From positions 30,403 through 94,402 of IMG/VR virus record IMGVR_UViG_3300034073_004910: 64,000 bases of DNA; one strand, 5' to 3'. Shown in pieces: positions 21,279-32,030 of this stretch (the first letter of the stretch is position 1; the number at the start of each line of letters is the position of its first letter). The position numbers and the translations under genes were made by a program. The DNA comes from a virus. The notes under the pieces are model-generated. The model saw only the letters and a list, made by a program, of their open reading frames with translations. It ran no database searches and was not told the DNA's origin.

Positions 21279-21632
21279 TCAGACCTGACCAACTGCCGCA
21301 ACTTTAAGCTCTTCGAGCTTACGATACAAGCGAATCAGGTCAATTTTGCTTGCCTTGCCGAAGGATTCTACAGGAAAACCCAGAGTACCTTCGATCATGG
21401 AGACAAGCATTTCTTTGCGTACCGGGAGCTCCCCAGTCTTGGTGAGACGAGGCTGCTTCCGGTAAACACCTTCACGAGAAAGCTTAGCAATGATCGACTT
21501 TACAGGTCGATTCATTTCTTCTGCAAGCTCCTGAACCGTCTGAAGATTGGGTTCAGCCGAATAGCGCTCTACCATGTGAGCCACCATTTCGCTCGTGTAG
21601 TTCGTTGCTTCTTTCATTTGCTTTTCCCTCAT
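21279..21632 (-). CDS. T5 A2-like DNA-binding protein (paralog 2)
   Basis: NYT.E...ELAEEM.R.VKSIIAKLSREGVY.K...KASK. Confidence 0.65.
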   Translation of the reverse strand: MREKQMKEATNYTSEMVAHMVERYSAEPNLQTVQELAEEMNRPVKSIIAKLSREGVYRKQPRLTKTGELPVRKEMLVSMIEGTLGFPVESFGKASKIDLIRLYRKLEELKVAAVGQV

Positions 21633-23399: not shown

Positions 23400-24130
23400 T
23401 TGGACAAAATTTTCCCCAAAATTGTATAAAACCGGATTAAATTCCTGCAATTCCACGGACCCCGCTCCGGGGGCCGGAAAAAATTGGGGTAATTTGTGCG
23501 GGGTCGGTGCAAGCCGAGTCGGGGTTTGTGCAAATTACTGCAAATTAGTGCACCCGCCCGGGCGGTTGTAAAAAGACTAGCAAAAGCAACTCGGTGGAGC
23601 AAATAAAAAATTTGACTTGACAAATAGGGGGTGCGAAAAGTATAATGGGCGCGCGCAAGTGCAGCGCAATTTGCATTGCTTTTGCACTTGGGCGCGGAAA
23701 ATATTGCATTGATTTTGCACTTGCTGGTCGGCGCGCGGGTTCAAGCGGGGTTGGAAAGCAAAACGGGGTTGCTGCAAATTTATTGATAATTAGTGCAAAT
23801 TGGTGCACCCGCCCGGGCACTCGTAAATTTAGTACTTGACATCGCTTTCGCACTTGGGCGCAGGCTCGCTGCAAATTTTTTTCTTCAAAAAAATTTTTTT
23901 AAGTGCAAAAAACTTGACTAAAGTACAAAAATGCAGCAAATTCAGCAGCATACGTAGATTTAGTACTTGCATCGCTTTTGCACTTGGGCGCAGGAGGCGC
24001 CGGGGGTTGAATGGGCAGGTAGCTTGCCGCCGGGGGGTTGAATGGGCAGGTGGGTTGACGAAATCGGGGGCAATGGCAGGTAGCTTGCGCAAACCCCGCC
24101 CGATGAGCAAGAAACTTGACGAACGCCCCC
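23400..24130. repeat. Non-coding repeat/palindrome block (TGCAAAT, GCACTTGGGCGC, AGTACTTG, GCAGGTAGCTTGC units)
   Basis: repeated motifs and no credible ORF. Confidence 0.75.
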
Positions 24131-24169
24131 AGGCGGCAAATGCGAATGAGAATCATTCGCATTTCCGGC

Positions 24170-24740
24170 GCAATGTTATAACATACCATTGAGCGAGTAA
24201 ATGAAGGGGCGCTCGTCGCGCCCCAGTCATCTATCGAGCGATCGCTTCGAGCAACCGTTCGAGTGACACCTTACTTGCCTTTTCCAGCCCATCCAGACTG
24301 TTAGCGGCCAGACTCAATGCCTGCTCAATTCGGTCTACCGTGACTTCCTTGGAAGCAACCGGCTTTCCATCCTTACGAACCCGTTCGAGTTTTTGGTAGG
24401 GAATTCCTTCCCGAATCGCTTTTGCGATGATGCTTTTGACTTTCGCATCAAACTGCTCTGCCAGCCCTTCTACCTTTTCAAGGTTGAGCGGGGCCGCATC
24501 GCGCATCGCGGTCAGAAGGGTCGGGTTAAACGTGCTAGCTTTCTCTGCCATTTTGGCTTCCTCTTTTGGCTCGCTGGCCTATCCAGCGAATGAGAGAATT
24601 ATACGCCCATCGAGCCGAAAAGGAAAGAACTCTTTTTCATATCGCTGGCCGTTTTCATGCGAAAAAATTCCTTGACAAGCGCAGCGCGCTTGTGATAAAA
24701 TCGGCGCGGCTATTGTCAAGTAAGTTGACAATTCGCCCCC
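24170..24740. repeat. ~570-bp duplicated cassette, copy 1 (copy 2 at ~28605-29170)
   Basis: near-identical downstream hairpin, gene and upstream promoter element. Confidence 0.9.
24231..24551 (-). CDS. T5 A2-like DNA-binding protein (paralog 3)
   Basis: LAEQF..KVKSIIAKA.REG..YQK...GLEKASK; GAGG RBS. Confidence 0.7.
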   Translation of the reverse strand: MAEKASTFNPTLLTAMRDAAPLNLEKVEGLAEQFDAKVKSIIAKAIREGIPYQKLERVRKDGKPVASKEVTVDRIEQALSLAANSLDGLEKASKVSLERLLEAIAR

Positions 24741-24922
24741 AGGCGCCAAATGCGAATGAGAATCAATCGCATTTGGCAAGCAAAAAATAAGGCGTTATAA
24801 CGCCTTATTTTAAATATGCATCCTCGTATGTATCAAATATAAACGCGCATTCTAGCAGAAGATTTATTATTAGCGGGTTTAGGCAAATTAGCCTAAACCC
24901 TTCTACCAGTTCCATCATATTA

Positions 24923-25594
24923 TTATGCCGCCTTTTGAACAATACGCCACGGATTAGGCGTTATTACATTGTAGGGAACCTTGCGCTTATGCTTGAAACA
25001 TTCTGCAAGAATTTCCGTTTCGATAATAGCGTCCGACAATGCAGTATGATCCTCGATAAAGTCATGATTACCGGAAATAAAACGATAGGCAAACTCTGCA
25101 CCAGTCTTAATATTACCCTTAGCAGAAACCCAACCGCTATTCTGAGCGAGTTTAATGTAAGACTTTTTGTTGAGTCTTACTTCGCAAGCAAAACGCCAGA
25201 TATCGAGTTCACGAATATCGGACGAAAACAGCGGAGCGGTATTATATTGTTCGCCCATGTTACGCAATACACGTTCATCGAATCCCAGATTATAAGCGGC
25301 TACAGTATCAATCTTATAATCAATCGCAAGATTGCGAATAGTATTAGATACCGTTTCCCATGATTCCATCTTAACAGTACCGTCGTTCAGCATGGGGGCG
25401 TAGTGCGTGAACATCTTGCGAGCGTAGAATGCGCCCATCATTCGTTCCGCATTCGTGAATACTTCGCGCACCAGTGCATTGTACTGGTGAACAATGTTAC
25501 CCTGACGATCAGTAATCGTAAGGCCAACGTCGTAAACGTGACCGTTCAGGTCGCACGTTTCGGTATCGAGAACCATAATCATTTGCTTTGCCAT
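24923..25594 (-). CDS. DEDDh 3'-5' exonuclease
   Basis: LDTET, AYNLGFD and DHTALSDA motifs; start MAKQM. Confidence 0.88.
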   Translation of the reverse strand: MAKQMIMVLDTETCDLNGHVYDVGLTITDRQGNIVHQYNALVREVFTNAERMMGAFYARKMFTHYAPMLNDGTVKMESWETVSNTIRNLAIDYKIDTVAAYNLGFDERVLRNMGEQYNTAPLFSSDIRELDIWRFACEVRLNKKSYIKLAQNSGWVSAKGNIKTGAEFAYRFISGNHDFIEDHTALSDAIIETEILAECFKHKRKVPYNVITPNPWRIVQKAA

Positions 25595-25650
25595 CTTCGC
25601 GAACCCTTGCTGTGAGTGAGAACCTACTATACTCAACGCCGAACCGGCTG

Positions 25651-26076
25651 TCAACGGTTTTCGTATCGAAAGACAAAAAATTCCTGCATCGCTCGGGCTT
25701 CCATTTCCCAAGGGGCGAGCCAATAGTCTAAATCCGTTTCGTTGGAATAAACCTTGCCTTTATATAAAACCTTATCGTTTGCAATATCTTGCAATTCTCC
25801 TTTTACCCATTGTTTAATATGCGTCATTTCATGCGCTACTAATTCCATTAGTCGCTGTTCTGACAACATAAGTTCTTCATTAATAATAATAAAGAACAAA
25901 TCGTCATCGCCCCTAAAACATGCAGCATCCGCAGCACCAGAAACAAAATTTTCTATGCAGTCTGCCGATATATCAACGCCAATGTTTTTTGGCAGCTTAT
26001 AAAAGCTTACGCAATCTTTTGCGATAGCTTTCGCAATAGTATTAAAGCGCTTAAAGCCCAAATCAACCTCGATCAT
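25651..26076 (-). CDS. HExxH zinc metallopeptidase-like protein
   Basis: VAHEMTHIKQW...PWEMEA. Confidence 0.75.
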   Translation of the reverse strand: MIEVDLGFKRFNTIAKAIAKDCVSFYKLPKNIGVDISADCIENFVSGAADAACFRGDDDLFFIIINEELMLSEQRLMELVAHEMTHIKQWVKGELQDIANDKVLYKGKVYSNETDLDYWLAPWEMEARAMQEFFVFRYENR

Positions 26077-26204
26077 TTTCGCGTTCCTTCACAACCAACA
26101 CAGATATTATAGTCTAACGGGGGCCAAAAGTAAACATGAGAATTTCGTTTAGAATCAATGACTTAGATCAACCCGACCTTCGAGTTTTTCAATTTCAGTC
26201 ATAC

Positions 26205-26390
26205 TTACCACACCAAGCGACGTACTTCCGAATCTAGCATCCATTCTTCAATGTAAACTGTTTCTACCATTTTACATTCATTATCGAGTTCAAGAGCCCG
26301 ACATTTCGCTTTTTCGAGGTCAGAATATACTGCTACCGTAACGCGACCGTTCTGCGTACTTTCAAGAACAATACCATACACTACATTCAT
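26205..26390 (-). CDS. Small protein (VYS..KA...VYIEEW family, paralog 1)
   Basis: paralogs at 27326 and 30522; GAAGGA RBS. Confidence 0.75.
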   Translation of the reverse strand: MNVVYGIVLESTQNGRVTVAVYSDLEKAKCRALELDNECKMVETVYIEEWMLDSEVRRLVW

Positions 26391-26589
26391 TTTCGCGTTC
26401 CTTCATTCGATGACAAGCATTCTAGCGGGTTTCATGCAGCCAGACTAGTGAAAGATTTTCATGGTGCCATGAGAAAAATTCGCTTGACAAGTATGGGATG
26501 GGGATGGTATAATTTCGGCGCCATATTGACAAGTAGCTTGTCAATCGCCGAGGCGCCAAATGCGAATGATTCGCATTCGCATTTGCCCG

Positions 26590-26844
26590 TTATTGGTAAA
26601 CAATCAACGCCAAAAGCGATGATTGTAAAAAGAACCCTATTCCGTTTGACGTTATATGCAAAAAGTCACGGTTGCCTATTGCGCGAATAAAATAAAGCGC
26701 CAGCCCAGCCCACACCATTAAGACTAATGAAATTTCAGGCAATTTAACATCCTGCCCGTTCAGTATTCCTATCGTAGTGGGAACCGTCGCGCCTTGAATA
26801 AATAGCATACCGAGCCATCCGCAAAATTCGCAAAGGTTTTTCAT
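26590..26844 (-). CDS. Three-TM membrane protein, PQ-loop/SemiSWEET-like
   Basis: three hydrophobic helices; ...ITSN.IG pattern in helix 3. Confidence 0.55.
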   Translation of the reverse strand: MKNLCEFCGWLGMLFIQGATVPTTIGILNGQDVKLPEISLVLMVWAGLALYFIRAIGNRDFLHITSNGIGFFLQSSLLALIVYQ

Positions 26845-27059
26845 TCCTTCACCTTGACTTCAGTAATGCTGCAAGTCAGAAAATGATCTGGAGTCGCTCC
26901 CCAGATATACCCGTTTTCAGAATGCCAAGTTATTGGGTCACCATCTAACATTTTGTGTATCGCTTTTTGCGCGGCCTTCACGCTAACGTAAAGCCCTGCA
27001 ATTGCACCGATTTCTTGGATATATACAACCGGATCTATGGTTAGCTTGTAAACGATCAT
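26841..27059 (-). CDS. Hypothetical protein
   Basis: GAAGGA RBS and own promoter. Confidence 0.65.
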   Translation of the reverse strand: MIVYKLTIDPVVYIQEIGAIAGLYVSVKAAQKAIHKMLDGDPITWHSENGYIWGATPDHFLTCSITEVKVKE

Positions 27060-27110
27060 TTTGCGTTCCTTCAGTTGAGAGAAGTATTCTAGCCCAGCGC
27101 GCGCTCGGTG

Positions 27111-27341
27111 TCAATCATTTTCTTCGGGCTTTTTCCAGTAGACTGCCAAGCGCTTGCAATTGAAGCGAATCGTGATTGATTCGTGCCCGTCGCGAATCGA
27201 AGTGTATCGCTTATAATTGGGACCAATGCTATCAACTTGAAAATCCCTGCCATTTTCCCAGTCTGCCAGCGCCTTAGCGGCTGAAGTGTAATCGCGACCA
27301 TACCCCGGAATTACTGTCATTTTATTTATTCCCTCGACCAA
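27111..27341 (-). CDS. Hypothetical protein (P.YGRDY.SA..ALADW..GRDF)
   Basis: recalled phage motif. Confidence 0.65.
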   Translation of the reverse strand: MVEGINKMTVIPGYGRDYTSAAKALADWENGRDFQVDSIGPNYKRYTSIRDGHESITIRFNCKRLAVYWKKPEEND

Positions 27342-27520
27342 ACTGTAACAGAAAATTCGCTATCCATCATCCATTCTTCAATATAAACGCTTTCTCCCAT
27401 TTCGCATTGGCTCAATAATTCTTCAGCGAGTTTCACCGCCTTATTATAATCGGAATAAACTCCGACCGTAGCATAGCTGTTGTCCGAAGGCTCGCCAAAT
27501 ACAACAGTGTATACATTCAT
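27326..27520 (-). CDS. Small protein (VYIEEW family, paralog 2)
   Basis: paralogy. Confidence 0.75.
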   Translation of the reverse strand: MNVYTVVFGEPSDNSYATVGVYSDYNKAVKLAEELLSQCEMGESVYIEEWMMDSEFSVTVWSRE

Positions 27521-27848
27521 TTTTACATCCCTCTATTCGATGACAAGCATTCTAGCGGGGTTCGTGCGAATAGACTAGTGAAATATTTTCATGATGCCAT
27601 GAGAAAAATTCGCTTGACAAGTAATGGATAGGGGTGATATAATTTTGGCGCCATATTGACAAGTAGCTTGACAATTCGCCCCGAGGCGGCAAATGCGAAT
27701 GATTCTCATTTGCATCGCTGCTCTTGTACCTCGCGCCTAACCAAATGCTTGACAATTGCGCGCTTAACATGCTTACCATGTTTAGCGGAATGCGTTCCTG
27801 CTCGCCCTGCTAAATGCGCGTTTTTAGCTACAAAATTTTGCGCTTTCA

Positions 27849-28295
27849 TTATACGTCCCTCGGGTGTATTGCGTTAATTCCCAGTATTTTAACAGTGTTT
27901 CTTACAGAATCATTATCTTCATAAAATACATTAGAAACGCGGTGAAAGTCTACATTTAATCCTGACAGTAAGTCATATTTTAGAAGTGCATCGGGCCGAT
28001 TATCGTTCTCACCTTCGCGGGACAATACGCGATCAAAGTGTAACCCATGAGTACGCAAAAAGGTAAAGTCTGCCATCTGCAATACTCGCGCAGTACAAAT
28101 TACGACAATATTACCAGCATTCCAAACGTCACGCCAAACGTTAGCGAGCGGTAAAAGTTTATCTTGCATAATCTTTTCGGGCGTAGAATTTGCTCGCCAT
28201 CCGGCAAGGCAAAAGCTACCGTCCGCATTCGCAACAGAACGATGGCTTGAATCTATGACCGTTCCATCTAAATCGAAAATGTTATATCTTGGCAT
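27849..28295 (-). CDS. HAD-superfamily phosphatase
   Basis: IFDLDGT, CTAR, K and YEDN motifs. Confidence 0.85.
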   Translation of the reverse strand: MPRYNIFDLDGTVIDSSHRSVANADGSFCLAGWRANSTPEKIMQDKLLPLANVWRDVWNAGNIVVICTARVLQMADFTFLRTHGLHFDRVLSREGENDNRPDALLKYDLLSGLNVDFHRVSNVFYEDNDSVRNTVKILGINAIHPRDV

Positions 28296-28664
28296 TTTCT
28301 TAAACCCCGTAAACGTGTGCGCTGGCAACAATGATTGCAAAAAGAACGACTCTGCTAAGAGCGGAAGTGAGTACTAATTCTGCGAGCTTTTTCATTCGTT
28401 CCGTTTCCTGATTCAATGGGAGTATTCTACCGGGTCCGAGCAAAAAGTACAAGAACTCTTTTTCATATCGCTGGCCGTTTTCATGCGAAAAAATTCCTTG
28501 ACAAAACCCATGCGGTTATCGTAAAATCGGCGCGGCTATTGACAAGTAGCTTGTCAATTCGCCGAGGCGGCAAATGCGAATGATTCTCATTTGCATTTGC
28601 CGAGCAACGTTATAACATACCATTGAGCGGGTAAATGAAGGGGCGCTCATCGCGCCCCGATCAT

Positions 28665-28985
28665 CTATCGAGCAATCGCTTCCAGCAACCGCTCGAGTGA
28701 CACCTTACTTGCCTTTTCCAGCCCATCCAGACTGTTAGTGGCCAGATTCAATGCTTGCTCAATTCGGTCTACCGTGACTTCCTTGGAAGCAACTGGCTTT
28801 CCATCCTTGCGAACCCGTTCGAGTTTCTGGTAGGGAATTCCTTCCCGAATCGCTTTTGCGATGATGCTCTTGACTTTCGCATCAAACTGCTCTGCAAGGC
28901 TCTCTACCTTTTCAAGGTTCAGAGGCGCTGCATCGCGCATCGCGGTCAGAAGGGTCGGGTTAAACGTGCTAGCTTTCTCTGCCAT
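28665..28985 (-). CDS. T5 A2-like DNA-binding protein (paralog 4)
   Basis: three residue differences from 24231..24551. Confidence 0.7.
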   Translation of the reverse strand: MAEKASTFNPTLLTAMRDAAPLNLEKVESLAEQFDAKVKSIIAKAIREGIPYQKLERVRKDGKPVASKEVTVDRIEQALNLATNSLDGLEKASKVSLERLLEAIAR

Positions 28986-29213
28986 TTTGGCTTTCTCCTT
29001 TGGCTCGCTGGCCTATCCAGCGAATGAGAGTATTCTACAGGGCCTGAGCAAAAAGTACAAGACCTTTTTTTCATATCGCTGGCCGTTTTCATGCAAAAAA
29101 ATTCCTTGACAAGCGCAGCGCGCTTATGATAAAATCGGCGCGCCCATTGTCAAGTAGCTTGACAATTCGCGCCGAGGCTACAAATGCGAAGATTTTTCAC
29201 TTGCAAACCAGGC

Positions 29214-29390
29214 CCAGGCCTGGCATTGAAATTTCACTTGCAAATTCGCCCCAGGCCTGGCATTGAAATTTCACTTGCAAACCAAACCCAGGCCTGGCAT
29301 TGAAATTTCACTTGCAAATTCGCCCCAGGCCTGGCATTGAAATTTCACTTGCAAATTCGCCCCGGGCCTGGCATTGAAATTTCACTTGCA
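29214..29390. repeat. Five tandem 37-bp repeats containing palindromes CCAGGCCTGG and TGAAATTTCA
   Basis: units at 29214, 29251, 29288, 29325, 29362. Confidence 0.9.
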
Positions 29391-29394
29391 TAGG

Positions 29395-29565
29395 TTTCTA
29401 ACTTGCATAGATTTCTAACTTGCATAGATTTCTAACTTGCATGTGCAGGTTTCTTGCCTTTCCCCTCGATGGGCAGGTAGCTTGCAGGTGAGCCCGCCGA
29501 TGGGCAGGTAGCTTGCAGGTGAGCCCGCCGATGGGCAGGTAGCTTGCAGGTGAGCCCGCCGATGC
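29395..29565. repeat. Three 17-bp (TTTCTAACTTGCATAGA) then three 31-bp (GATGGGCAGGTAGCTTGCAGGTGAGCCCGCC) tandem repeats
   Basis: direct reading. Confidence 0.9.
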
Positions 29566-29806
29566 GCAAGAGACTTGCCTTTGCCCGCCCGATGGGCAGG
29601 CAAGTTGACGAATTCCATGAGATGCGCAGAAAACTTGCATTTTCGGCGCGGTTGGCACGTTTCTTGCACATGAGTCAAAGCTGGCATGAATTTTGCATGT
29701 ACTCCACAATTGGCATGATTCTTGCAGATTCGGCGCGGTCCGCAAGATGCTTGCACAATTCCGACAAATGCGAGTAATTCGCATTTGTCGGAATTATAAG
29801 CGATTA

Positions 29807-30151
29807 TTAAGTAGTCGCTTTATGTTCTTCTAGCATACGCGCGAACAATGCGCGCTTATTATTAATAATCGCTTCGGCTTTTATTAGAATATCGAGTTCT
29901 TCTGCCGTTAACTCAATCGGATCAAGTTTCGGCAATCCTTCTGTAGCGTTCTTTTTATTATTGCAGTCATGGCAAAGGCATTGTAACCATTCAGGATCAT
30001 TTAAATCGATACCCATTGCAAGCAACGTTTTGCGTGGATAAACATGATCAATTTCAAGATTAGAACCACTACCGCAAGCTGCGCAGCGATAGTTATATGC
30101 TGCAAATACTTGCGCGCGCAGTCTCATTTCAACCTTGCTAAACTTTGCCAT
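29807..30151 (-). CDS. HNH endonuclease
   Basis: CAACG...LEIDHVYP...LQCLCHDCN; GGAG RBS; start MAKFS. Confidence 0.85.
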   Translation of the reverse strand: MAKFSKVEMRLRAQVFAAYNYRCAACGSGSNLEIDHVYPRKTLLAMGIDLNDPEWLQCLCHDCNNKKNATEGLPKLDPIELTAEELDILIKAEAIINNKRALFARMLEEHKATT

Positions 30152-30259
30152 CTCGTCTCTCCAGTACCGTTGCTCTATGGTTCCCATTATACAGGCATCC
30201 TCGAGCATGGCAATAGGCGAGTTAGACCTTTTTTTCATATCGCTGAGCTTTCTTATGCG

Positions 30260-30515
30260 AAAAAAATCCTTGACACGCTCTGGCGTGGTAAGGTAAAATC
30301 GGCGCGCCCATTGTGAAGTAGACTGACAATCATTCAGCGGCCTACATGAAAAAAATTCGCTTGACAAGTATAGGATAGGTGAGGTATAATTTTGGCGCCA
30401 TATTGGCAAGTAGACTGACAATCATTCACCGGCCTACATAAAAAAATTCGCTTGACACGCTCTGGCGTGGTAGGGTATAATCGGCGCGCCCAAATGAGAG
30501 GTATTCTCATTTGGG
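30260..30515 (+). repeat. Three tandem ~91-bp units, each with a TTGACA-N18-TA(T/A)AAT promoter-like site
   Basis: -35 hexamers at 30270, 30361, 30452. Confidence 0.85.
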
Positions 30516-30521
30516 TTACCG

Positions 30522-30710
30522 TTACTCCTCGCTTCGCCACACGACCGAGGAGGCATTTGAATTCAACAACCATTCCTCCACAAACACAAGTTCGCCAGTC
30601 TCATGTGCGAGTCGCTCGGCCTCTTGCACGGCAGCCTCGAGCGTGCTATAGATTGCTTCCAGCGAGTCAGCTTCATGATCGACTGCGGTCCCGACTACGT
30701 ATACTTGCAT
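30522..30710 (-). CDS. Small protein (VYIEEW family, paralog 3)
   Basis: paralogy; GAGG RBS. Confidence 0.7.
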   Translation of the reverse strand: MQVYVVGTAVDHEADSLEAIYSTLEAAVQEAERLAHETGELVFVEEWLLNSNASSVVWRSEE

Positions 30711-30798
30711 TTTCGCGTTCCTCTGTTTCCTGATTCAATGAGAGTATTCTACACGGTCTGCCGAGAGAGTACAAGACTTTTTTGTAACAGAATGTAAC

Positions 30799-30992
30799 GT
30801 GCGTCGACTTGTTACCGTGCGTCGACTTGTTACCGTGCGTCGACTTGTTACCAGCCCGGGGCGGTTCCGAGACTGTCAAGTAGCTTGACGCTCAGGCTAC
30901 CCCGCACGTACAACTTTTGGAATTTTTCAAAAATTGAAAATTAAAGCAATCTGCCCAAGCAATTTGCCCAAGTAATTTGCCCAAGCAATTTA
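30799..30992. repeat. Three 18-bp (GTGCGTCGACTTGTTACC) and three 13-bp (TGCCCAAGCAATT) repeats near the presumed genome end
   Basis: direct reading. Confidence 0.8.
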
Positions 30993-31027
30993 CTCTTCAA
31001 AAATTTTTACCATCAAAAAAATAATGT

Positions 31028-31056
31028 TTGACATTTCGTTTCGTAGCAACTATAAT
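31028..31056 (+). promoter_or_regulatory. Late promoter TTGACA-N17-TATAAT
   Basis: perfect consensus; ATG follows 7 nt after the -10, so the mRNA is probably leaderless. Confidence 0.8.
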
Positions 31057-31063
31057 AGTCGTC

Positions 31064-31510
31064 ATGAATTTGGTAAAAATTTCTCCTGAAAGTCTTGAAA
31101 TTGCAAATGCATATTTGCAAAATGGCAGCATTGCTAGTGTTGCAAAGGCGCTCGCACTTCCAGAAAATGAGGTGACAGAAATTCTCTCTCGCCGAGAAGT
31201 AAAAGCGTATCTAGATTCCATTTATCTAGATCACGGCTATCGAAATAGATTCAAGTTAGCAGAGACTCTCGATCTTCTCATAGACGAAAAACTTCGTGAA
31301 GCAGAAAGTACCGAGATGTACACTAACAAGGACTTAGCCGATCTGTTACACCTAGCTCATAAGATGCGTATGGATGAAATTAAAGCAATGACCGAACTTG
31401 AGAAAGCTCGAGCAACGCCGATTAAAAATCAAACCAACGTTCAGATTAATGAGACTCCATTTGGTGCTGGCAACTACGGCAAGTTAATGGAAAAACTTTT
31501 GCAATCATGA
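31064..31510 (+). CDS. terS: Terminase small subunit (T5-like)
   Basis: ISPE.LEIANAYL..G...GYRNRF..GNYGKLM; position upstream of terL. Confidence 0.85.
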   Translation: MNLVKISPESLEIANAYLQNGSIASVAKALALPENEVTEILSRREVKAYLDSIYLDHGYRNRFKLAETLDLLIDEKLREAESTEMYTNKDLADLLHLAHKMRMDEIKAMTELEKARATPIKNQTNVQINETPFGAGNYGKLMEKLLQS

Positions 31511-31794
31511 AAGAATTTCTAGCAGAACTCGGCATGAACGCCGGTCTCATTGTCGCGGGTCTGTTTGGCTCGCTTTTAACTTTGCGGGGGGATGCCGCGA
31601 AGAGGCTTGGAAGTGTTATGGTAAGTTTAGGAACAGGAGTAGGGTCCGCAAACTATTTAACTCCAGTAGTTATTGATCTACTGGGCGTTCAAAGTCGAAA
31701 TCTCGAGTTTGGAATAGCTTTTATACTAGGCTATTTGGGGCTAAATGGCATTGATTTTCTAGCTCGACGACTTTTTGAGAGCAAAAAACCATGA
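31507..31794 (+). CDS. Holin-like membrane protein
   Basis: three hydrophobic segments, basic C-terminus. Confidence 0.55.
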   Translation: MKEFLAELGMNAGLIVAGLFGSLLTLRGDAAKRLGSVMVSLGTGVGSANYLTPVVIDLLGVQSRNLEFGIAFILGYLGLNGIDFLARRLFESKKP

Positions 31795-32030
31795 TCGAAA
31801 GCGCACTTTGTCTATCCATGATATTTTTTTACGTTTCATTGCTGAATGATAAAAAAATTTGCTCTTGGTCGAAGCCGAAAGTGTGGATATTGCGTTCACT
31901 TTTTGCAGGCAGCATTGCTTCCGTAGCTTGGAGTGTATTTTACGAAACAGAATTACCCTATCTATTTCTTACTGCAATTTTTGGTTGGGGCTTTTATTAC
32001 CATCGGTATACGTTAAATGGAAATCAGTAG
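31791..32030 (+). CDS. Small membrane protein
   Basis: hydrophobic, coupled ORF. Confidence 0.55.
   Translation: MIESALCLSMIFFYVSLLNDKKICSWSKPKVWILRSLFAGSIASVAWSVFYETELPYLFLTAIFGWGFYYHRYTLNGNQ

Follow-up and report, generated by a model that had tools for sequence, protein, structure and literature searches.

Gene-less antisense promoters with an 18-bp spacer and a GGCGC discriminator in the small-gene region of a distant T5-like phage

The DNA analyzed here is a 64-kb window, bases 30403-94402 of the 94.4-kb IMG/VR virus record IMGVR_UViG_3300034073_004910. The terminase of this phage is 47.7% identical to Klebsiella Sugarlandvirus-type Demerecviridae terminases, which makes it a distant T5-like phage. 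Part of the window is occupied by small leftward genes, several of them backed by homology, and among these genes, which are all on the minus strand, lie nine sigma70-type promoters that point the other way.

A search of the window for the pattern TTGACA-N18-TAWAAT returns exactly nine matches, all on the plus strand (23617-30481), at the positions named in the original prediction for this DNA; 0.04 matches would be expected by chance, and none of 100 shuffles reaches nine. When the nine are read side by side, an A-tract (e.g. GAAAAAATTC) directly precedes every -35 hexamer, and GGCGC follows the -10 at an offset of 1 or 3 nt, again as had been described. The A-tract is placed at about -40 to -50 and is UP-like, four of the nine carry a TG extended -10, and all nine combine 11-12 matches over the 12 hexamer positions with an 18-bp spacer, in keeping with the layout of sigma70 promoters (16-19 bp). 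Within the whole 94.4-kb record, GGCGC follows a promoter at these nine sites and nowhere else. The promoters also precede no credible gene, as had been claimed: a Shine-Dalgarno (SD) sequence with a start codon and an open reading frame (ORF) of at least 45 amino acids (aa) was found downstream of none of them, no tRNA or rRNA lies there, and the plus-strand frames that overlap the promoters start within the promoter itself. A plus-strand ORF at 30494-30733 was considered and rejected as a gene because its opposite frame is a DUF7336-like paralog; three such small paralogs, recognized by homology, are found among the minus-strand genes. Each promoter has the same setting, in that it sits upstream of the next leftward gene, is directed away from it, and faces the 3' end of the previous leftward gene. 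A hairpin (30488-30516) follows the last promoter of the tandem set.

Table 1 Features of the promoter array and its surroundings. Coordinates are those of the window, and each promoter entry begins at its -35 hexamer.
Feature	Position	Strand	Remarks
GGCGC-class promoter 1	23617..23652	+	TTGACA-N18-TATAAT-g-GGCGC; fires into repeat region A
GGCGC-class promoter 2	24672..24707	+	TAAAAT, TG extended -10; upstream of and directed away from 106-aa gene 24231-24551(-)
GGCGC-class promoter 3	26484..26521	+	upstream of and divergent from DUF7336-like gene 26205-26390(-)
GGCGC-class promoter 4	27614..27651	+	upstream of and divergent from DUF7336 gene 27326-27520(-)
GGCGC-class promoter 5	28498..28533	+	between Dmp-like gene 27849-28298(-) and second 106-aa gene 28665-28985(-)
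GGCGC-class promoter 6	29106..29141	+	fires into repeat region B
GGCGC-class promoters 7-9, tandem	30270..30487	+	-35 at 30270, 30361, 30452; 91 bp apart
Palindrome 1	24712..24732		ATTGWCAAG-N3-STTGWCAAT; 4-5 nt after GGCGC[C/G]
Palindrome 1, further copies	26525-26545, 27655-27675, 28538-28558, 29146-29166		
Palindrome 1, degenerate copies	30310-30330, 30402-30422		
Palindrome 1-related site	near 30864-30887		no promoter
Hairpin 2	24745..24777		CAAATGCGAATGA..TCATTCGCATTTG, Fur-box-like core AATGAnnnTCATT
Hairpin 2, further copies	26558-26584, 27693-27715, 28568-28602		
Hairpin 2, promoter-less copies	about 24137-24183 and 29755-29797		
Bidirectional terminator hairpin	24784..24811		predicted end of the ~105-nt transcript of promoter 2 and of the convergent exonuclease-like gene region
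ORF-less repeat region A	23650..24190	+	GCACTTG and GGGCAGGTAGCTTGC motifs; downstream of promoter 1
ORF-less repeat region B	29160..29800	+	37-bp x5.3, 17-bp x3.5 and 31-bp x3.3 arrays and sigma54-like TGGCAY-N5-TTGCA units; downstream of promoter 6
Leftward small-gene cassettes	24231..30710	-	106-aa gene x2, exonuclease-like, HExxH 141-aa, DUF7336-like x3, Dmp-like HAD phosphatase, HNH
Exonuclease-like gene	24923-25600	-	homology
Dmp-like HAD phosphatase	27849-28298	-	homology
HNH endonuclease	29807-30163	-	homology

The nine promoters stand apart from the other promoters of this genome. Among all sites that match at least 11 of the 12 hexamer positions, the GGCGC promoters have an 18-bp spacer in nine of nine cases, whereas the remaining 27 have 17 bp in 19 cases and 18 bp in two (Fisher p = 6e-7); six perfect promoters with a 17-bp spacer lie elsewhere in the window. 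The nine spacers belong to five unrelated sequence families, so their shared length is not simply copied sequence, and the notion of a spacer that varies in sequence at a fixed length stands for the window. The 17-bp promoters fall into two groups, an early type with an ATAT discriminator and a late type with AAAAAAATTAGTAG-TTGACA as upstream context. The temporal promoter classes of T5 differ mainly in the discriminator, the early ones carrying ATATT (PMC7472727). Together, these observations support a distinct class that is defined by a UP-like A-tract, consensus hexamers, an 18-bp spacer and a GC-rich discriminator, and that is gene-less and antisense to the genes. Stringent promoters of the rrnB P1 type join a UP element to a GCGCC-type discriminator through a 16-bp spacer and an imperfect -35, and they drive rRNA. 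The UP-like A-tract and the GC-rich discriminator of the nine promoters are shared with these, but the 18-bp spacer and perfect hexamers are not, and no stable RNA gene is driven.

The same element is found well beyond this phage. An exact scan for TTGACA-N17/18-TATAATTTTGGCGC finds it in at least 118 IMG/VR stretches, where we estimate that fewer than one would be expected, and loci fetched by terminase show promoters joined to GGCGC even where terminase identity is no more than 55-64%. In these terminase loci the elements always have the orientation of the terminase and lie inside a block of opposite-strand small genes. Our census covers 80 fetched IMG/VR loci with 293 elements. The elements of one locus all share a strand (0 of 80 loci have them on both). 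In each of five complete genomes of ~100 kb, the 5-8 copies are co-oriented and confined to one cluster of 5-8 kb, and the clusters in relatives are located upstream of the terminase. The spacer is 18 bp in 263 of the 293 elements (90%) and 17 bp in the other 30, never 16 or 19, against mostly 17 bp for other consensus promoters (Fisher p = 4e-44). The proposed conservation of spacer length therefore holds for most of the elements, with one clade (L025, L045, L047) having GGCGC promoters with 17-bp spacers throughout, so that 18 bp is typical and not universal. The distance between -10 and GGCGC ranges from 0 to 4 nt across relatives. No SD-plus-start ORF follows 273 of 287 elements (95%), compared with 58 of 137 other consensus promoters. 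Downstream, a median of 80 nt separates GGCGC from the stop codon of the convergent gene; upstream, the median from the -35 to the divergent gene's start codon is 116 nt. Different clades have tandem sets spaced ~80-95 bp apart; in L045 and L047 the spacing is 91-95 bp. In the closest relatives, whose terminases are 87-88% identical, comparable promoters number just one or two and none abuts GGCGC, and the array is therefore dispensable. The element is real and widespread.

What follows the promoters is more variable. In seven of the nine, an imperfect palindrome (palindrome 1, ATTGACAAG-tag-CTTGTCAAT) begins 4-5 nt after GGCGC[C/G], and in four of these seven units it is succeeded by a hairpin with a 13-16-bp stem and a Fur-box-like core (hairpin 2). 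A near-identical copy of hairpin 2 is present in L042 (255-285), whose terminase is 55% identical, and similar palindromes, of the form AAATGAGAATCATT, are found in T5 repeat region 3 (T5 L044 9470-9640). Since palindrome 1 and hairpin 2 also occur away from any promoter (Table 1), they are not simply parts of one RNA. A minus-strand promoter concealed in palindrome 1 is convincing in only one of the seven units, where a TTGACA-16-TATCAT match (29153-29126) overlaps promoter 6; small or leaderless peptides in hairpin 2 (MRMI...) were rejected, as they have no SD and their C-termini are not conserved. No plus-strand terminator follows the promoters at 26484 and 27614, whose predicted transcripts would overlap the convergent gene, and in some other units the predicted transcript stops at a terminator ahead of the gene. 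Across relatives, a strong hairpin follows 187 of 254 non-redundant elements (74%), against 27 in the control, and in 116 of the 187 the hairpin starts within 0-4 nt of GGCGC. Hairpins with a T-run, resembling terminators, come after 141 of 289 elements (control, 39). The hairpin is usually the terminator of the convergent gene. In our reading of the listed sequences, the hairpin copies of L055 show compensatory changes.

Such an anatomy fits the suggestion, made at the outset, that short hairpin or antisense RNAs are produced, and the RNAs themselves could be the functional products. The array would then yield abundant short 5'-triphosphate hairpin RNAs, together with two ~0.6-kb repeat RNAs from promoters 1 and 6, which would act in trans, for instance by diverting a host defence or an RNA-binding factor as decoys, or by pairing as antisense with pre-early mRNAs at their 3' ends, in the manner of lambda oop and P22 sar. 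The predicted transcripts of five units were folded, and four of them are much more stably structured than shuffled sequences (z = -4.6 to -10.2), the 27651 unit giving z = -2.1; this, along with the frequency of hairpins after the elements and the ORF-less tandem-repeat arrays (including 37 nt x5.3) that promoters 1 and 6 face, speaks for functional RNAs. The hairpin sequences differ freely among phages and among copies, however, which makes a shared trans target unlikely. That palindrome 1 and hairpin 2 can be present without a promoter counts against RNA products as well, as does the identity of most hairpins as terminators of convergent genes. A search of Rfam, with gathering and E-value thresholds, matches no family downstream of the promoters, returning only tRNAs and tmRNA elsewhere and one spurious miRNA match. 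On balance we think it unlikely that the RNAs are what the array is for.

The location of the array invites comparison with the T5 terminal repeat. The HAD phosphatase among the leftward genes has a homologue in T5 Dmp, which belongs to the pre-early genes of that repeat (E = 1e-16, with 38% identity across 89 residues). In Logan contigs from two runs, depth over ~24.6-30.8 kb is 70-83 and 10-13, against 37.1 and 6.6 in the adjoining late-gene contig, about 2x as a collapsed direct terminal repeat would give, although contig depth is a poor measure of copy number by the tool's own warning and is inflated by internal repeats. The contigs compared (24649-30827 and 30823-32000) break at 30823-30827, within an 18-bp x3 tandem repeat, and it is possible that a collapsed terminal repeat has one end near 30.8 kb. 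From the Dmp homologue, the T5-like palindromes and the weak measure of depth, the array looks to lie in T5-type pre-early terminal-repeat-like DNA, and the idea that this DNA is injected first is plausible to that extent. By analogy with T5 gene order, the leading end would be near 30.8 kb, with the promoters directed towards it. The T5 terminal repeat, with its untranslated repeats and its injection-stop region (Davison, 10.1101/866236), offers further likenesses: ORF-less repeat blocks, palindromes of the AAATGAGAATCATT type and a shared neighborhood, marked by Dmp (here its homologue) and next to the terminase side. The T5 repeat has DnaA boxes and no consensus promoter, whereas this phage has consensus promoters and no DnaA boxes there (no TTWTNCACA between 12.5 and 48.7 kb). 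T5 has none of these promoters; its sole perfect consensus promoter is elsewhere in the genome and has a 17-bp spacer. The T5 protein gp026, which binds RNA polymerase and affects discriminator contacts, has no homologue in this phage by tblastn.

If the array does enter first, holoenzyme might be captured there. The original prediction had proposed a trap for sigma70 holoenzyme that shuts off the host. A cell's RNA polymerase numbers in the thousands, however, and the 9 sites of an entering genome (18 if the repeat is doubled) cannot titrate it; with the closest relatives also lacking the array, a global polymerase decoy is unlikely. A local version, in which polymerase occupancy of the DNA itself serves as a trap, anchor or brake, is one that we also regard as improbable. 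Holoenzyme would bind tightly, the 18-bp spacer and GC-rich start would slow opening and escape, and the first-entered DNA would be held, or its transfer paused, as an analogue of the T5 injection-stop region. In its favor, every binding element matches the consensus although nothing more than a hairpin would be produced, the array lies over the putative terminal repeat, and T5 has dense arrays of protein sites (DnaA boxes, palindromes) in the corresponding place (10.1101/866236), where this phage has no DnaA boxes. But the sites are scattered over 7 kb between genes and not gathered at one stop point, close relatives do without the array, and one clade has 17-bp spacers; promoters directed, by the T5 analogy, to the leading end also have no obvious pulling or braking geometry. 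Very unlikely, in our estimation, is the more specific form in which holoenzyme at the promoters is a cis device for two-step DNA transfer that clamps the first-entered terminal repeat in place of the T5 DnaA-box region, or, as a variant, in which GGCGC is a virion nick site and the promoters open only on incoming, nicked parental DNA. Transcription-driven pulling of DNA as in T7 was discarded, since transcripts would run straight into hairpins or terminators and the presumed polarity points to the leading end.

The anatomy of these elements, their conservation and their distinctness as a class can be read directly from the genomes, and the best reading of them is that they are genuine sigma70-type promoters of a separate class, from which transcription would start. 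Phage early regions are usually read as genes and the promoters that drive them. Here, a lineage of large environmental phages related to T5 keeps 5-9 maximal-affinity promoters per genome that drive nothing and all oppose the genes, in DNA that is probably the first to enter the cell, and this degree of conservation suggests a function in transcription control or in the handling of incoming DNA that is outside current models. The explanation we favor, while holding it tentatively and somewhat short of an even chance, is that each promoter is a cis-acting punctuation or insulation element between leftward cassettes. Each promoter, with its UP-like A-tract, consensus hexamers (often with TG), 18-bp spacer, short T-run and GGCGC discriminator, belongs to a repeated intergenic module. 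It has one leftward gene's terminator on one side and the next gene's promoter on the other and opposes both, so that it could make no more than a short hairpin RNA, or else antisense RNA that extends into the upstream gene. A polymerase that is bound or starting at the antisense promoter would meet head-on the polymerase finishing the upstream cassette, at its terminator. Such an encounter would stop or shorten read-through and might also trim the 3' end of the mRNA, leaving each cassette to answer to its own promoter alone. Through their class-specific spacer and discriminator, the elements could respond in their own way to a phage factor, to supercoiling or to the growth state of the host. 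The polymerase binding elements, position and orientation are kept while the downstream sequence varies so long as it forms a hairpin, which argues for a role in cis and not for a common RNA product. The insulation reading also agrees with the distinctness and conservation of the class, with the short distances to the convergent stop codon and the divergent start codon, with the hairpins after the elements, with the back-to-back and face-to-face promoter pairs and with the plasticity of the cassettes.

Several observations weigh against insulation. An antisense promoter is a costly insulator compared with a better terminator, and the closest relatives manage with their one or two. About half of the elements have no plus-strand T-run after the hairpin, so some of them would give long antisense RNAs and not a clean stop. 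Insulation also does not explain why an invariant GGCGC sits at a variable distance from the -10, nor a covarying inverted repeat around the -10 that is seen in 37% of the relatives' copies. In these copies, and in none of the window, the -10 lies inside an inverted repeat with arms of 11-14 bp, GCCAAAATTATA-N3-TATAATTTTGGC (examples are G008 71667-71704, G010 31405-31440, L049 and L055). The arms appear to covary in individual copies (TTT/AAA, ATT/AAT, C/G; T-run with A-run), pointing to a hairpin or cruciform at the -10, or to a dimeric binding site that spans it. A bottom-strand -35 that would go with this palindromic -10 was sought in relatives and is absent.

The invariant GGCGC could instead be a site at the level of DNA: a counterpart, in this lineage, of the T5 nick site (R/GCGCRGG, on a single strand), or a GC clamp by which termination of the convergent gene is strengthened. 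T5 nick sites are GCGC-centred and strand-specific (PMC3517423; T5 sites CCCTGCGC), and GGCGC is likewise strand-uniform, probably on the same strand relative to the terminase; it is also tightly adjacent to the hairpin while its offset from the -10 varies. The flanks fit poorly, though, with the T5 consensus approached in only two of the nine window copies and the next bases in relatives being C/A then A, not RGG. T5 nicks are moreover scattered genome-wide and not found at promoters. We see hardly any chance that this is the purpose of GGCGC.

Back-to-back gene promoters stand beside 91 of 274 elements, and the elements might be helpers of the divergent gene promoter. An element would recruit polymerase and generate local negative supercoiling, letting pre-early genes fire on injected DNA that is linear and possibly nicked; T5-type virion DNA is nicked (PMC10644984). 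Many copies have their partner at 30-50 bp with an A/T tract in between, and in our own reading the partners that adjoin the elements in the window have poor -35 hexamers (TTGTAC..TAGAAT). Nevertheless, a clear partner is present at only a third of elements, the face-to-face and tandem arrangements do not fit, and transcripts of 30-100 nt generate little torque. We rate assistance to a neighboring promoter as rather unlikely.

The closest described relatives of these elements are the promoter-early stem-loop (PeSL) cassettes of T4-like phages (Arbiol et al. 2010, PMC2839356; Comeau et al. 2014, PMC4122927). Like the GGCGC elements, PeSLs are repeated intergenic units of a near-consensus sigma70 promoter and a stem-loop, and both occur in plastic regions of small accessory genes and are tied to insertions and deletions between strains. 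In PeSLs, the spacer is N17, the promoter runs along the genes, an SD and start codon follow, and the stem-loop is upstream; here, the promoter opposes the genes, has N18 and GGCGC, is followed by no ORF, and has its hairpin downstream. The design is an inverted, gene-less PeSL-like variant with its own discriminator, and PeSL is the nearest described element. The belief that nothing of the kind had been described is accordingly right for T5, which has no such promoter, and too strong in view of how close PeSLs come in form (PMC4122927).

Plasticity is also visible around the array itself, in public runs whose matching sequences are DNA contigs. Related strains in two other studies' runs (X5 and X7) join 26078 to 27529, so that five small genes and one promoter module are gone, and in X5 only, the sequence differs across 30060-30816, the stretch of the three tandem promoters. 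A recent ~550-bp duplication (24150-24700 and 28590-29135) carries the 106-aa gene and its promoter module. The module might then be mainly a recombination handle for cassette swapping, with the antisense promoter carried along, as has been proposed for PeSLs, which behave in this way (PMC4122927). The deletion and the divergent stretch, both inside the cassette region, and the repeated ~200-bp modules along with the duplication are all in line with this. Yet homology alone would suffice for recombination, which leaves unexplained the perfect hexamers, the spacer fixed over unrelated sequences, the GGCGC and the antisense orientation in 80 of 80 loci, and we consider recombination quite unlikely as the main role.

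A second comparison is with the short cis-antisense RNAs and convergent promoters of temperate phages, such as lambda oop, P22 sar/Pant and 186 pR/pL. These too set a strong gene-less promoter against a gene, with a short RNA and/or transcriptional interference as the result, and face-to-face pairs occur in L025 and L042. They are single specific switches with a defined target overlap, whereas the elements described here number 5-9 per genome, have interchangeable downstream sequence and would mostly stop before the target gene. The face-to-face pairs are perfect promoters (L025 1250/1340, 3282/3376 and 3904/4000; L042 767/877) with their -10s only ~33 bp apart, so that two polymerases could not both be bound. 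The staging of the T5-type pre-early program and its two-step injection are a long-standing open question, and the elements, being short and portable, could serve as compact insulators.

The remaining observations concern the host, the neighboring genes and the repeats. DNA similarity searches against near and distant GenBank phages gave nothing useful, nor did a search with a relative's element. A scan of 185,579 species genomes for the host gave 19 matches and no identification; the matches are mostly small contigs of metagenome-assembled genomes from many phyla and are thus probably mis-binned phage. The 141-aa protein (25651-26076, minus strand) has an HExxH motif (HEMTH) and no assigned Pfam or PHROG match, and its gene adjoins the exonuclease-like gene in L010 and L042 as well. 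A 117-aa paralog of the 106-aa protein, 40% identical, is encoded at 21279-21632; T5 A2 gives no alignment with the 106-aa protein and only a faint match with the paralog (E = 0.049).

In run X1, a contig at the much higher depth of 244 links two Fur-box-like boxes 25 nt apart, so this box is also present elsewhere in that sample. Promoter 6 is immediately followed by the 37-bp x5.3 array (29195-29390), which in layout and unit size resembles the repeat antitoxin RNAs of type III toxin-antitoxin systems; no toxin gene is nearby. The spacing GGCA-N6-TTGC, of the sigma54 type, has nine plus-strand matches with a ~30-bp period at 24014-24088 and 29472-29725 (e.g. TGGCACGTTTCTTGCA and GGGCAGGTAGCTTGCA), which fall within both ORF-less repeat blocks. 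These sigma54-like units have the core GTAGCTTG in common with the palindrome that follows the promoters and with a site at 30880, which shortly precedes the late promoter at 31028.

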